IMG/VR virus record: IMGVR_UViG_2541047896_000001
Span: 1 to 8,206 of that record
Strand: one strand, 5' to 3'
DNA length: 8,206 nucleotides
Origin: a virus
Taxonomy: Monodnaviria > Loebvirae > Hofneiviricota > Faserviricetes > Tubulavirales > Inoviridae
The position numbers were made by a program, and so were the translations under genes. The notes under the pieces were generated by a model that was not told the origin of the DNA, made no database searches, and worked only from the letters and a program-made list of their open reading frames with translations. Below are positions 1,337 through 6,125 of this stretch, in pieces. How positions within the stretch are numbered: position 1 is the stretch's first letter; each line of letters opens with the position of its first letter.

Positions 1337-3220
1337 TCACGCAGTCAGAATGATACGCAGCGAAATAATGCCCCAGATAAGCAGGAATACCGCTTTCAGA
1401 AGTGGCCTGATTTTTTCCAGAAGCTCGCAGTGAGAATCAATGGAATATTTATTGTCCCAGAGTTCGAACGACCATACCGGACACTGAACATCCTTCGATG
1501 AAATAATCAGATTTTTAATGTCCGGCATTAATTCCGTAATTGGCTTTAGAATTTCCTCACCTGTAGGCGGTTTTTCAAGTTCCGGCGCTTTAATGCCGGG
1601 GTCTTCGCCTAAATCAACAGAAGTATCGGTATCTGTGCCTGTACCAGGGTGTACACCTGTATCCGTTCCCGCACCGGGTCTGGCATTAACCCACGACTGA
1701 GGAACGACAACCGGACTATAAAGCAAGCCCTTATCAAGTTTTACGCCAACAGCATTAGCCGCAGCCGTCAGTTCAGCCGCCGTAAAAGGTTTATCAAGCG
1801 GTATCCCCTGATATCCTTCCTGAACAACAGTCTGACCTGCAAGGCCATTAATAAGATTAACCAGCGCAGCCGGGTTTAACTGTTCTTCCGGCTTGAAATC
1901 TATATTATCAATAACCTCGCCATTAATTACCTGAGGTAAAGTTGATGTATCAAATTCTGTATTAAAAAATATCTGGTCTTTAACATCCTGAACATCATTC
2001 GTCGTTTTATACACGGCCTTCTCAGGGTGGCAAATACTTTTCCACTGCGTTTTGGGATTATCAGCCGTACTGCCCGGCGCAGGTACTTTCTCGCTTTTAC
2101 ATAAATCCCATGAATTTTCAAGCGTAACCGTTGTTGTCGCAACAGATAAAACAACAGTTACAATCGATGAATATCCACCAAAATAAGGATTCGGCTTTTC
2201 ATACTGAAAGTCTTTAACGGAAACCGAATAAACCTTAAAATTTCTTGGCATCCTGATATGTAAGTTATTGTCGTCAGAAGCCTCATGATAAGTCACATTG
2301 GAATGAGAATAACCATTAATCGACTTATAAAGCGCAATCATTACCGGATTATCACTGACAAGTACAGCATCGCCCTTTGCATCCCTGATATCAGTCGAAT
2401 AAGGATATTTAGTACCCTTTACTGACACACGATATACATCATTCGGAAATGGCTGGCTTATCGGCGGTGGTGCATCAATATTGTAATAGGTTGGCGCAAT
2501 CTGAACAGGTTTAACCTGCTGATTATAAGGGTTTATCGAATCCTGAATATTCTTCGCAGAAAAGCCAGTAGCATCAGAGGGCAAATAAACAGCAACAGGG
2601 CTTTTAGGTGAAGGTGCAACAGAAGAAGTAACAGTAGCGCCATTGGACAAATTAAGTAAATAAGTTCCATCATCCTGTTTTATTCCACTTGTAATATATT
2701 CAACAGCTTTTGCGCCCTGCTTTAAAGCAAGGTCAGCAACGGAAATAACACCCGCAGCCTGCCCCAACAATCCCCATGTTGTCTGTCCGGCAGCCATCAT
2801 ATTACTGCCAAAACTTGAAATACCCGTAGATATCGAATCGTCAATTGTATGCTTCGCAAGGCCATAAGCAGCCGCGAAAACTGACGTTCCGGTGCAAAGC
2901 TGAGGGTTACCCACTTTCTCGCCACACATGCGGATTGAATCAAAAACGTCAGGACGTTCGCGTATAACCTCCGCAGCGACAGCGATACCCGCGCCCATAC
3001 CGAGAGAACTGGCACCCGTTGCGAACACACGCCCCGCAGATTGAGAAACAACCTGAGCTTCACGGGTTTCAACCATTTGCTGAATTACACGTCCAAATCC
3101 GTCTGCTGTTACTGCATCAGCATGTACACCGGATGAAACCAGTAAGGACAATATAGTAATACCTAACTTTCCAGACCCTGAATGACCGCCCAGGCGCATA
3201 AAAGCCCCCATAAAAAACAC
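1337..3220 (-). CDS. Adsorption / minor coat protein pIII-like (receptor-binding, virion-tip protein)
   Basis: Long ORF, 627 aa from GTG at 3220-3218. In-frame ATGs at 3211-3209 and 3199-3197, the latter preceded by a GGGGG run, are more likely starts. N-terminal signal-peptide-like stretch KLGITILSLLVSSGVHA then DAVTADG; Gly/Thr/Asp-rich linker GAGTDTGVHPGTGTDTDTSVDLGEDPG; C-terminal hydrophobic anchor LLKAVFLLIWGIISLRIILTA. Lies between pVIII and pVI as gene III does. Confidence 0.7.
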   Translation of the reverse strand: MFFMGAFMRLGGHSGSGKLGITILSLLVSSGVHADAVTADGFGRVIQQMVETREAQVVSQSAGRVFATGASSLGMGAGIAVAAEVIRERPDVFDSIRMCGEKVGNPQLCTGTSVFAAAYGLAKHTIDDSISTGISSFGSNMMAAGQTTWGLLGQAAGVISVADLALKQGAKAVEYITSGIKQDDGTYLLNLSNGATVTSSVAPSPKSPVAVYLPSDATGFSAKNIQDSINPYNQQVKPVQIAPTYYNIDAPPPISQPFPNDVYRVSVKGTKYPYSTDIRDAKGDAVLVSDNPVMIALYKSINGYSHSNVTYHEASDDNNLHIRMPRNFKVYSVSVKDFQYEKPNPYFGGYSSIVTVVLSVATTTVTLENSWDLCKSEKVPAPGSTADNPKTQWKSICHPEKAVYKTTNDVQDVKDQIFFNTEFDTSTLPQVINGEVIDNIDFKPEEQLNPAALVNLINGLAGQTVVQEGYQGIPLDKPFTAAELTAAANAVGVKLDKGLLYSPVVVPQSWVNARPGAGTDTGVHPGTGTDTDTSVDLGEDPGIKAPELEKPPTGEEILKPITELMPDIKNLIISSKDVQCPVWSFELWDNKYSIDSHCELLEKIRPLLKAVFLLIWGIISLRIILTA

Positions 3221-3284: not shown

Positions 3285-3533
3285 TTAAGCGCCACGAACC
3301 ATACGCAAAATCCAGCGGACACCCGCAGAACCTGCATACAGAACAATAAGAGAACCCGCTACCGCCATAATTCCGGTCAGGACGGAACCGAAATTAACGC
3401 TGTTAGTCAGCGGCGTAAGGTCAATACCTTTACCACCAACAACATCACCTTCAGCAGCAAATACAGCAGGTGCAGCAACAGCCAGAGTAAAAGCACCAAT
3501 ACGGGTTAAAACCTGTTTAGTCTTACCAAACAT
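3285..3533 (-). CDS. Major coat protein pVIII precursor
   Basis: 82-aa ORF, ATG at 3533-3531 preceded by AAGGAG on the minus strand. Signal peptide MFGKTKQVLTRIGAFTLAVAAPAVFA, then a mature peptide of about 56 aa with acidic N-terminus (AEGD), hydrophobic core (VLTGIMAVAGSLIVLYAG) and basic C-terminus (VRWILRMVRGA). This is the hallmark pVIII layout. Confidence 0.85.
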   Translation of the reverse strand: MFGKTKQVLTRIGAFTLAVAAPAVFAAEGDVVGGKGIDLTPLTNSVNFGSVLTGIMAVAGSLIVLYAGSAGVRWILRMVRGA

Positions 3534-3831: not shown

Positions 3832-4122
3832 TCATTCTAATAATTCAAGCAGCATATCAACGTTATACCCTTTAGACTGCTCACCTGTCTGCTTATCAGT
3901 GTATGGGAAACTCCGTTCATAACCAGTAATACGGCAATGTACGTCTGTAATTTCATCACCAATACGGCCTAATGGTTTCTTTGATTTAATACGAATGACA
4001 GGCGGAAAGCTATAAGCATCAGCCGCAGGAGAAACAATTGTTGTATAATAAAAACCGCCACTATTATTAAAGCGTTTAATCTTTCCGGTAACAGTAGTTT
4101 CTAAATTAAGTAAATTACTCAT
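3832..4122 (-). CDS. Candidate ssDNA-binding protein (pV / RstB position)
   Basis: 96-aa ORF, ATG at 4122-4120 preceded by AAGGTG on the minus strand, TGA at 3834-3832. Small, predicted beta-rich protein immediately downstream of rep, where inoviruses encode the ssDNA-binding protein. No motif-level proof of family. Confidence 0.45.
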   Translation of the reverse strand: MSNLLNLETTVTGKIKRFNNSGGFYYTTIVSPAADAYSFPPVIRIKSKKPLGRIGDEITDVHCRITGYERSFPYTDKQTGEQSKGYNVDMLLELLE

Positions 4123-4138
4123 AATAACACCTTATATT

Positions 4139-5254
4139 CTATGCAACTCGTAAATGAGACGGTTTTACATACCACGATGGAATAACACAATCAGAAACTT
4201 TAATCTCTCGCGTTTGCTTGACAACAACAGGAGAGAATTTCGAAACATTACATTTTTGCGCAATGTCAATACCAATCTTGCGGAGTCTTGCTCGATGAAT
4301 ACGCACTTGATTTTTACTTAAATCAAAAATATGACCATGAAACCATTGGATCGCATACATAGCTGTAGTATTAGCTGCCCGTGTAGTTTCAACTATTCCA
4401 CGGGTAATAAGATGTTCACTAATAGTTTCAAAATCCATAGCATTCACCGATAACTTTTCATCAAGAGCCAGAAAATCAGAATGTAACTTATTTAAGACAG
4501 AATAATCAGATAACCCCCAAAAACCTAGAGAGTGCTTTTGAATAAAACGAGACTTCAATTTTTGTTCAAATCTGACTATTCCATTTTCCTTACAATAATC
4601 AATCACACTAACAATATAATTAAACTCTTTTGACTGCTCAGAGAATTTATTTTTTATTTTTAATAAACTATGTAACTCAATCTCATGTGACTTATTATAT
4701 ACAGTCGGATAAATAAGATTAACATTCCCTTTTTTAGACAACCAGTCAACAGATTTACCGTTTGAATGCAACCGTGGGACACTATTCCTATAGGGTTGAG
4801 TCGAAAGCCCTGAAATATAATCATCCTCATTCCCTTTGCCAACAGATTTATTAGATGTTATATGAAGCTCTTTAATTAACGCCCCATCAGTTACCATATG
4901 GGCTTTTTCGGTTTCTTTAGACTGACCGGGCATTAATCGAGTGCATTTTGTGAAAACAGGCAATTTAAGATCAAGAAGGATCTTATTGAAAACCATAACG
5001 CAAGCATCAACAGTAGGTAAGCCAAATAAATTATCAAGCCGCCCCCACCGCGAGGGGTTGCCCGTCATTTTTAGAACAGATCCACGGATAGAGATAGAAA
5101 CGACATCACAGAAAGATCCCCGGTGCTGAAAAGTTGGCTGAGAAAGCGCACTAGCCTCACCACTTTCAAGATGAATACGCTGGTAAGCAACATCCGAGAG
5201 AATAGGAAGTTGAAAGCCGAAATCCTGTTCAATACTTAACCAGTCGAAGAACAT
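4139..5254 (-). CDS. Rolling-circle replication initiation protein (pII / RstA-like)
   Basis: 371-aa ORF, ATG at 5254-5252, TAG at 4141-4139. First gene of the minus-strand operon behind a near-consensus sigma70 promoter. The N-terminal region (VVSISIRGSVLKMTGNPSRWGRLDNLFG) resembles, from memory, the conserved N-terminal block of Ff pII (CVEIKASPAKVLQGHNVFG). Size and position fit RstA/pII. Confidence 0.75.
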   Translation of the reverse strand: MFFDWLSIEQDFGFQLPILSDVAYQRIHLESGEASALSQPTFQHRGSFCDVVSISIRGSVLKMTGNPSRWGRLDNLFGLPTVDACVMVFNKILLDLKLPVFTKCTRLMPGQSKETEKAHMVTDGALIKELHITSNKSVGKGNEDDYISGLSTQPYRNSVPRLHSNGKSVDWLSKKGNVNLIYPTVYNKSHEIELHSLLKIKNKFSEQSKEFNYIVSVIDYCKENGIVRFEQKLKSRFIQKHSLGFWGLSDYSVLNKLHSDFLALDEKLSVNAMDFETISEHLITRGIVETTRAANTTAMYAIQWFHGHIFDLSKNQVRIHRARLRKIGIDIAQKCNVSKFSPVVVKQTREIKVSDCVIPSWYVKPSHLRVA

Positions 5255-5377
5255 AGCGCCCTTTCTTAGATTCTCAGAAATTATTTCATGGTGCTTTTAT
5301 AAGACCTGAGAAACTAAGTGTCAACATTTCTAAGAATTTAGAGATATGATGCAAAGCTAGCAGAATGAGGAAAGAGC
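5255..5377. promoter_or_regulatory. Divergent promoter/operator region between rep (minus) and the small plus-strand ORF
   Basis: Minus-strand promoter for rep: -35 TTGACA (complement of 5319-5324), 17-nt spacer, -10 TATAAA (complement of 5296-5301). Repeated near-palindromic TTCT-N-AGAA motifs: ttcttagat 5264-5272, ttctcagaa 5271-5279, ctgagaa 5306-5312, ttctaagaa 5329-5337. These overlap or flank the promoter and are candidate operators. A possible plus-strand -10 TATGAT lies at 5345-5350. Confidence 0.55.
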
Positions 5378-5566
5378 ATGCCTACAAAGCACATAAACGA
5401 TGTTCAATGGAGAAAAATAGAGAAAGAAACCGTTAGAGCGGTATCAACCCTAGCTGTTCCAGTTAAAGATACCAAAATGCTCGAATGGATAATCGCCAAA
5501 GGGTTAGAGACGATCACAGAAGACGACTACCGCAAGTTCCTGAAGACAGAAAGCAAAAAAAAATAA
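5378..5566 (+). CDS. Small hypothetical protein, candidate phage regulator (RstR-like position)
   Basis: 62-aa ORF, ATG at 5378 with GAGG 7 nt upstream, transcribed divergently from rep as rstR is in CTXphi. Lys-rich C-terminus. No recognisable helix-turn-helix, so the regulator call rests on position only. Confidence 0.5.
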   Translation: MPTKHINDVQWRKIEKETVRAVSTLAVPVKDTKMLEWIIAKGLETITEDDYRKFLKTESKKK

Positions 5567-5758
5567 GCGAGCAGGGAAAAAATACGGGAAACCGTACTAA
5601 AGTTCGGGTGTCACAGAACCCCGAACCGCTTCGCGGCGAAAAAACGAACAACAGCAGAGCTTGCGAAATCGGAATTAAGATAAGCTGGACGTCAAACGAT
5701 TAAACAAAAATACGCCATTATGCAAAGATCAAATGACACACTCTAAAAGGTATAGGTA

Positions 5759-6025
5759 ATGAACAAAGACCAGATAATACAAGTACTTAATGAAACAGAG
5801 AATGACAGCCCCGTAGCAAGAGCAGAATTAGCAAGATTCCTCGTAAAAACAATCTACAATTTTGTAAAAATGGAGAGGCCAGAAGGTGAAGGTCTGGACG
5901 GACGTGATGGCCCAGAAAGGCGCAGCATGGGAAAAATTGTAGATGCGGCAGAAAACCACTACTTTAACATGATAAAAGAAAGCCATGAAAAACAGGGAAT
6001 TGGAAGAAAAAACCCTGAGGAATGA
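5759..6025 (+). CDS. Hypothetical protein, unknown function
   Basis: 88-aa ORF, ATG at 5759 with AAAGG 8 nt upstream, TGA at 6023-6025, immediately followed by the dif-like site and a hairpin with T-run. Charged, Glu/Lys/Arg-rich; no motif recognised. Confidence 0.45.
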   Translation: MNKDQIIQVLNETENDSPVARAELARFLVKTIYNFVKMERPEGEGLDGRDGPERRSMGKIVDAAENHYFNMIKESHEKQGIGRKNPEE

Positions 6026-6031
6026 CGCCCT

Positions 6032-6125
6032 AATGCGCATAATGACGTTATGCTAAAGAGGCCGCTGCGGGATTCTATTTTCGCAGCGGCCTTTTCAACA
6101 TAACGAGTCAAACATTATGCGCACC
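6032..6125. other. Xer-type attachment structure: two inverted dif-like sites separated by a GC-rich hairpin (attP-like / prophage-host junction)
   Basis: Site A, plus strand: 6032-6042 aatgcgcataa (9/11 to the dif XerC arm GGTGCGCATAA), 5-nt spacer, 6048-6058 ttatgctaaag (9/11 to the XerD arm TTATGTTAAAT). Site B, minus strand: complement of 6115-6125 = ggtgcgcataa (11/11), 11-nt spacer, complement of 6093-6103 = ttatgttgaaa (9/11). Perfect 11-bp inverted repeat 6034-6044 / 6113-6123 and 7-bp inverted repeat 6046-6052 / 6099-6105. The dif consensus is recalled from memory. Confidence 0.65.
6060..6095 (+). terminator. Rho-independent terminator-like hairpin at the apex of the attachment structure
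   Basis: 10-bp GC-rich stem GGCCGCTGCG (6060-6069) / CGCAGCGGCC (6082-6091), 12-nt loop, then TTTT (6092-6095), 35 nt downstream of the 88-aa ORF stop. It may serve both as a terminator and as the tip of the folded attP hairpin. Confidence 0.6.

Follow-up and report, generated by a model that had tools for sequence, protein, structure and literature searches.

A conserved hairpin module upstream of Rep in an If1-type filamentous prophage as a candidate replication-origin element

What is the function of the 192 nt of DNA that lie between two small open reading frames (ORFs) upstream of Rep in a filamentous prophage? The region occupies positions 5567-5758 of the stretch of DNA analysed here, which is 8,206 nt long and is referred to below as the window. 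An initial annotation had described clustered hairpins in this region and had offered a replication origin, a packaging signal or a small RNA as possible functions. To our knowledge, mapped replication origins exist for very few phages of this type, namely Ff and CTXphi.

Genomic setting of the region

The window contains the right-hand part of a filamentous prophage, the genes of which occupy the minus strand. These include genes for Zot/pI (1-1035) and DUF2523/pVI (1039-1326), ORFs of the size of pIII (1337-3220), coat protein (3285-3533) and gV (3832-4122), and a gene for a gene II-type Rep (4139-5254), the proposed partner of the element described below. The Rep protein matches Pfam G2P_X_C with an E value of 1.5e-24 and Phage_CRI at the cut-off score, and it shares 82% amino-acid identity with the Rep of phage If1. 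Given this gene orientation, the viral strand, which is packaged, corresponds to the minus strand of the window, and the hairpins have to be read there rather than on the plus strand, as had originally been done.

Two small plus-strand ORFs border the region and point away from Rep. The first (5378-5566; 62 aa), which appears in the ORF list and in the RefSeq annotation of an identical prophage, separates the region from the Rep promoter and has no Pfam match. Judged by position alone, which is that of a repressor gene such as rstR of CTXphi, it would encode a regulator. A run of nine A residues (5558-5566) closes this ORF (…agcaaaaaaaaataa) immediately before the conserved module, and slippage in this homopolymer could give the putative regulator a different C-terminus or affect its stop codon. 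The probable Rep promoter lies on the minus strand within 5255-5377 and reads TTGACA-17-TATAAA, with TTGACA at 5325-5320; a consensus promoter scan missed it, since the final T is wanting in TATAAA. It is flanked by the inverted repeats TTCTTAGAA and TTCTGAGAATCTAAGAA, which look like operators for the small antisense ORF.

The second small ORF (5759-6025) is followed by an inverted pair of dif-like sites (6031-6125), which consists of TAATGCGCATAATGACGTTATGCTAAAG at 6031-6058 and, on the minus strand, GGTGCGCATAATGTTTGACTCGTTATGT at 6098-6125, with a G+C-rich hairpin between them (6058-6095). We take the XerC-side arm of the latter site to be equal to that of E. coli dif. In single-stranded form the pair could fold as a forked attP, with its arms paired and its centre unpaired, by analogy with CTXphi. 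A tandem prophage adjoining hipBA in E. coli PEC148 is 97-99% identical to that of the window, and its tandem copy breaks at ~6126, which marks the prophage end. In PEC148 (L002, 8928-10814), hipA and hipB, in this order, separate the end of the prophage array from the autotransporter gene. In the window, the host autotransporter gene (6311-8206) lies beyond the prophage end and almost directly adjoins it (6127-6310), unlike in PEC148, and hipBA is therefore missing in the window strain.

Anatomy and folding of the conserved module

The 192 nt had been taken as one structured unit, but over its full length the region, modelled as single-stranded DNA, folds no better than shuffled sequences on either strand (z = -1.08 for the minus and -0.86 for the plus strand). 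Structure prediction, which the initial annotation had recommended for both strands, was informative for a 77-nt core (5572-5648), which folds beyond chance (z = -2.65; 3 of 200 shuffles). The functional unit is a module of ~75 nt (5571-5646, minus strand), which is seen in the family alignment and is the sole non-coding block shared with If1. Read 5′ to 3′ on the minus strand, it comprises a T-run, hairpin A, hairpin B, the linker TTTA, hairpin C and TTTTTTCCCTG. Its boundaries do not match those of two mechanically called ORFs that overlap the region (5485-5703, plus strand, 72 aa; 5514-5651, minus strand, 45 aa). The remainder of the region (5647-5758, with no strand assigned) matches near-identical prophages alone, in three E. 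coli genomes. No stable structure is predicted for it, and it presumably contains the leader and ribosome-binding site for the small ORF that follows. A direct repeat of gcgaaa had also been recorded; the copy at 5663-5668 is placed correctly and the other lies at 5636-5641 rather than 5634-5639, but this is a trivial 6-mer repeat that is not kept in relatives.

Hairpin A (5626-5636, minus strand) has the form CCGC-GAA-GCGG and is a DNA mini-hairpin with a G-N-A triloop that contains GCGAAGC. The hairpin had been recognized in its plus-strand form, ccgc-ttc-gcgg, one base off at 5627-5637; base 5626 is in fact common to hairpin A and the adjoining 7-bp stem. Enterobacterial and Vibrio copies keep hairpin A with a variable middle loop base (GAA, GCA, GTA or GGA), and one copy carries the compensated stem CCCC-GAA-GGGG. 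Copies from Pasteurellaceae and Pseudomonas have other sequences in its place.

Hairpin B, the proposed Rep nick hairpin, is present at exactly the position first described (5602-5626) and has, on the minus strand, the stem GTTCGGG/CCCGAAC enclosing an 11-nt loop, GTTCTGTGACA, at 5609-5619. Of 105 distinct copies, 98 have exactly this stem, which is replaced in Pseudomonas and pheasant phages by GTGGGGG/CCCCCAC, in which two pairs are compensated. Loop length ranges from 10 to 12 nt across the family, and CTGT-N-ACA within it is invariant.

Four nucleotides downstream of hairpin B is a palindrome, hairpin C (GTACGG-TTTC-CCGTAT; 5582-5597, minus strand), which may be a Rep-binding or cruciform element. 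Its core corresponds to the hairpin tacgg-gaaa-ccgta reported at 5583-5596, which we confirm. There are ~50 different arm pairs of hairpin C in the family, every one of which pairs, and the mean hairpin score is 6.43, compared with 3.40 ± 0.12 for shuffled flanks (reached in 0 of 200 shuffles). Pairs were counted with loop-anchored arms, a MAFFT alignment having lost a single register over the 10-12 nt loops. Between phages whose Reps are 96% identical, the outer arms have been fully exchanged yet are complementary, and selection thus acts on pairing itself and not only on a protein-binding sequence. The inner GG-TTTC-CC follows the Rep lineage. We also tried the asymmetry of G.T and A.C mismatches in hairpin C as an indicator of the folding strand, but the counts (18 and 14) were uninformative.

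Hairpin C is followed by a T-run plus CCCTG (TTTTTTCCCTGC; 5571-5582, minus strand). Most copies have a T-rich tract in this position, and TTTTTTCCC recurs in those from enterobacteria. Such an arrangement raises the question of whether the element acts at the level of RNA, either as an intrinsic terminator formed by hairpin C and the T-run, which would stop viral-sense read-through into the antisense regulator and Rep, or as a structured spacer or small RNA in a plus-strand transcript spanning the two small ORFs. Hairpin C followed by TTTTTT is indeed the only terminator-like site in 5200-6150, and the covariation is equally compatible with RNA pairing. A terminator of this kind fits the minus strand, but its stem is weak, a sizeable minority of copies lack the T-run, and the invariant 11-nt loop of the neighbouring hairpin, maintained across five bacterial orders, would be left unexplained. 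Plasmid copies in which hairpin C is degenerate and hairpin B intact likewise speak against it, as does the triloop of hairpin A, since G-N-A triloops are a DNA motif. The small RNA originally suggested fares no better, because the region 5567-5758 has no Rfam match at E values up to 1, the plus strand has no terminator or convincing promoter for a separate transcript, and the orientation of the module follows the phage strand and not the local small genes. We therefore regard an RNA-level function as improbable.

Distribution of the module and its linkage to Rep

A megablast search of deposited phages gave one match, between 5578-5641 and the 'major intergenic region' of If1, on the If1 gene strand. 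The module is the only non-coding block common to the two phages (88.5% identity over 61 nt), which share ~75% nucleotide identity in Rep and gV. The If1 record gives this 1.2-kb region its name without an assigned function, and no description of the module was found in the literature searched. Annotation of the If1 record (L199, NC_001954, 6040-8429) looks outdated. Its Rep gene is split into 'ORF320, homologous to R-pyocin' and a 'minor intergenic region', a division that may reflect a frameshift in the older sequence, and ORF348, between the module and Rep, looks like what we take to be a TnpB/IS605-OrfB-type insertion.

Searches with all 192 nt recovered a core of 55-65 nt in 703 E. coli records, 434 plasmid records and other inoviruses, and more than 100 distinct sequences outside the window retain this core. 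A first pattern scan (GAAGCGG...CTGTGACA) was too loose, yielding 120 stretches with ~7 true copies. With the core pattern we obtained 79 viral contigs and 58 genome stretches, and a few additional chance hits were excluded. The genome stretches come from Enterobacterales, Pasteurellaceae, Vibrionaceae, Aeromonadaceae and marine gammaproteobacteria. In 115 of 134 loci the module shares the orientation of the dominant coding strand, and in two it has the opposite one. At ~115 loci, including nearly all of those in phages, the same subfamily of Rep, which is Ff gene II-like, is encoded 300-700 nt downstream on the same strand. In the window, the module likewise lies in non-coding DNA on the Rep strand, at least 320 nt upstream of the gene.

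Among deposited phage genomes the module is co-inherited with Rep. The 22 phage-database records that encode a related Rep (among them If1, the Dulem and D_HF oral inoviruses, phiAFP1, Vibrio 10N.239, and Pseudomonas and bird-cloaca phages) include all records that carry the module. In eight of these 22 blastn missed it, and the four of the eight that we fetched all carry a diverged copy. Three of the copies are complete, with the stem GTGGGGG/CCCCCAC and the loop TGCTGT(T/A)ACA followed by TTT and a palindrome. The fourth, in Vibrio phage PQ189297 (L274), is partial because the record starts inside the module. We considered its start in the hairpin B loop as a possible footprint of a nick, but the record is trimmed to its first and last coding sequences and the stop codon of the regulator falls within the loop, so that nothing about the nick can be inferred from it.

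Exceptions to this linkage are found in the ig-1 region of CTX-type elements, on a Rep_1 plasmid and in Rep-less plasmid copies. In two CTX-type elements of Vibrio cholerae (L132 and L196) the module is inserted in ig-1 ~110 nt downstream of the mapped CTXphi nick hairpin. The L196 element encodes, downstream of the module, a 99%-identical RstA, and both hairpins coexist there; in L132 (AF416590) the module is upstream of a Phage_GPA Rep. The L132 module is bracketed by two direct 40-nt copies of a sequence (T.GCAA.CGTAGCGCGCCAGTGTTTGAGCG.TAGCGAGT) that is single in canonical CTXphi, which suggests gain or loss of the module by recombination between these repeats. CTX-type elements and the G2P-type phages of Vibrio have only the 68-nt module in common, and share neither repressor nor flanks; it must therefore have moved as a discrete unit. 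Arrival together with a swapped immunity cassette was considered and rejected, as the repressor gene is not shared.

On a 2.7-kb Rep_1 plasmid, the module occupies the rep-sense strand and is accompanied by the plasmid's own CTTGATA motif. Hundreds of conjugative plasmids carry degenerate copies with no Rep nearby. Copies on ColV-type, IncF and IncR plasmids, and some in chromosomes, keep hairpins A and B intact with a degenerate hairpin C (L003, 5998-6057; L009 and L011, 5001-5062; L245; L265). They continue into the same flank, TTTGTATATAATATCATTGAAGTT, and adjoin a TIR-domain gene or an STM4504-family gene. For such stray copies in CTX-type elements and plasmids, either the Rep of a co-resident phage is borrowed or the module has a Rep-independent role.

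These plasmids also bear on the packaging signal proposed in the initial annotation, that is, a viral-strand hairpin recognized by assembly proteins to start extrusion. The module is located in the main non-coding region, and it does form hairpins on the viral strand in an orientation-specific manner. The Ff packaging signal, however, is one long imperfect hairpin, unlike the short hairpins with 3-7 bp stems seen here. In addition, the core is invariant even though the assembly genes of the window and If1 have no detectable nucleotide similarity, and the module is present on the 2.7-kb Rep_1 plasmid and on large plasmids that lack assembly genes. This function is, in our estimation, highly improbable.

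Origin functions and comparison with known systems

In general, these observations point to replication, and taking the plus and the minus origin together, the ~75-nt module is very probably a replication-origin element. Having observed its conservation, strand bias, preserved pairing and linkage to Rep, we considered which of the two origins it might be, and we lean with modest confidence towards the core of the viral-strand (plus) origin of the If1-type prophage, with a nick in the loop of hairpin B. Of the options initially proposed, an origin with a nick site is thus the one that gains support, from the tie to one Rep subfamily, the viral-strand location upstream of Rep and the Ff-like central hairpin.

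By analogy with Ff and CTXphi, hairpin B would extrude or bend open in the supercoiled replicative form, where Rep (4139-5254), a distant homologue of the Ff gene II protein, would recognize the invariant loop GTTCTGT/GACA and nick it. The module gives a concrete nick position, predicted by M13 analogy only, between 5613 and 5612 on the minus strand. The resulting 3′-OH would prime rolling-circle synthesis, and the same site would end each round. Hairpin C, four bases downstream, would be the counterpart of the palindrome bound by the Ff gene II protein, and hairpin A and the T-runs would be accessory elements that may act in the displaced single strand.

A conserved plus origin must lie somewhere, and no other intergenic DNA common to the window and If1 qualifies, which favours the module. 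Several points stand against this assignment. The likeness to the M13 origin described below does not extend to a significant overall similarity, pairing itself is under selection in hairpin C, the plus origin might in principle be located within a gene, and the module also occurs with unrelated initiators. The last of these points favours the main rival function, that of a complementary-strand (minus) origin. Here, a host enzyme (primase, the PriA primosome or RNA polymerase) would prime at the folded hairpins in the SSB-coated viral strand, with no phage protein involved, and would convert the single strand to the replicative form. The module is found as a discrete unit beside four other initiator types (Phage_GPA, Rep_trans, Rep_1 and an Ff-like gpII), always on the gene-sense or displaced strand, and in L196 next to the CTX hairpin that was mapped as the plus origin. 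Movement as a separate unit from one replicon to another is the behaviour expected of a single-strand origin primed by the host. Furthermore, 389 of the 434 plasmid records with a match are conjugative, the invariance of the core across host orders fits a conserved host factor, and the compensated stems point to a folded single strand.

Further support for host priming comes from likenesses to single-strand initiation (ssi) sites of the G4 and phiX174 types, which resemble the module in being short hairpin clusters on a packaged or displaced strand with a mini-hairpin of the GCGAAGC/GCGAAAGC type. The hairpin A motifs GCGAAGC and GAAGCGG also occur in the phiX174 F-G intergenic region, the location of the phiX174 primosome site, and GAAGCGG is shared with ColE1 as well, next to the ColE1 origin. 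The layout of three hairpins followed by CTG, which in the window is 3′ of the hairpins, resembles G4 oric. These motifs, however, are absent from half of the family, hairpin A and GAAGCGG being missing from Pasteurellaceae and Pseudomonas copies, and CTG lies at a variable distance or is absent. The family profile found nothing in F, ColE1, G4 or phiX174 (best E > 3), and identity with the classical ssi sites of these four replicons was accordingly rejected. Neither homology to stem-loops I-III of G4 oric, where the CTG start site is just 3′ of stem-loop I, nor relatedness to the PriA n′ sites of phiX174 F-G, ColE1 and F was found, the profile being negative and CTG inconstant in the first case and only GAAGCGG and GCGAAGC being shared in the second.

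The Ff minus origin consists of RNA polymerase-binding hairpins that are far longer than those of the module. We found no pair of long adjacent hairpins mimicking -35 and -10 elements; the stems of the module are 3-7 bp, and it has no promoter-like site on either strand. Host-primed origins usually spread across Rep types, but among phages the module is limited to one Rep subfamily, a tight link not seen for the G4 and phiX174 sites. As a minus origin alone, it would leave no conserved plus origin between the window and If1. We therefore view a minus origin as possible but rather unlikely. A little more doubtful still is the specific proposal that the module is an unrecognized class of portable, 70-nt host-primed single-strand initiation signal with an invariant hairpin loop, read by a conserved gammaproteobacterial priming enzyme. 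If it were true, filamentous phages and both rolling-circle and conjugative plasmids would use one cassette, unrelated in sequence to the signals of G4, phiX174, ColE1 and F, to make incoming or displaced single strands duplex.

The pairing and transfer data are also compatible with a plus origin, because cruciform extrusion and single-strand termination need pairing too. They equally leave room for a host-primed or dual role, and the plus and minus origins may adjoin each other, which is the arrangement in Ff.

With the viral-strand origin as the preferred reading, the module provides a searchable signature, GTTCGGG-N10-12-CCCGAAC with the loop CTGTNACA and then a palindrome, that would mark the origin of one Rep subfamily. 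This subfamily occurs in phages of Escherichia, Klebsiella, Yersinia, Haemophilus, Mannheimia, Vibrio, Alteromonas and Pseudomonas, and the signature offers a practical marker with which such prophages can be found and oriented. The module is also a candidate minimal origin for phagemid-type vectors beyond the Ff host range.

Two features of G2P-family origins are present in the module. These are an inverted repeat with a conserved loop followed by a palindrome, as in hairpins B and C, and a non-coding, viral-strand position upstream of a gene II-family Rep. The closest known system is core domain A of the Ff phages (M13, f1 and fd), which is likewise on the viral strand and upstream of Rep, and whose Rep is homologous (Phage_CRI, G2P_X_C). 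The M13 origin consists of GAGTCCAC-GTTCTTTAATA-GTGGACTC followed by TTGTTCCAAACTGGAACAA, and the gene II protein nicks in the loop (PMC11765958). The M13 nick hairpin and hairpin B both have a stem of 7-8 bp and an 11-nt loop beginning GTTCT. Eight of ten specified positions of the hairpin B loop are identical to the M13 nick loop, GTTCTTT^AATA, a match noticed after the fact; the nick hairpin is the best of ten comparable M13 hairpins in this respect, the next best matching at five. Over the whole sequence, the module and the M13 origin are not significantly similar (p = 0.14). In both systems the nick hairpin ([D] in Ff, hairpin B here) is followed by a second palindrome ([E] and hairpin C, respectively) and then by an A+T-rich stretch. 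The systems differ in the 3′ half of the loop, which is GACA in the module and AATA in Ff, and in the spacing of the palindromes, which are separated by a 4-nt linker here and are directly adjacent in Ff. Unlike Ff, the module has an additional upstream mini-hairpin and an antisense gene between origin and Rep, and its nick is only predicted.

A further comparison is provided by two Pasteurellaceae-type contigs (L138 and L158) that each carry two different inoviruses in tandem, one If1-type and one Ff-like. The gpII of the latter is 43% identical to that of M13, and its origin, AGTGGAC-TCTCTTTAATA-GTCCACT followed by TTGTGTCAAAATGACACAA, lies ~470 nt upstream of gpII, which extends the classical Ff nick-loop motif to a protein this distant from that of M13. 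Both Rep types are present in these contigs with their own hairpins, and each type thus has a hairpin of its own. The loop is retained and the stem and palindrome are changed but still pair in this Ff-like origin, as in the module.

The second system with a mapped origin is CTXphi, where primer extension placed the nick in the second hairpin's loop (PMC4439123). Its Rep, RstA, belongs to Rep_trans and is unrelated to the Rep of the window (E = 7), and its nick hairpin, ACCCCCGT-CTAGTATT-ACGGGGGT, differs in sequence from hairpin B. We rejected direct homology because the two Reps are unrelated, and we regard CTXphi as an analogue only. As such it is close in organization, both origins being multi-hairpin structures in which the second hairpin carries the nick (CTXphi) or the conserved loop (the module). 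CTXphi and the window prophage also share the gene order attP, origin, antisense repressor, promoter and Rep, and both are integrated at dif.
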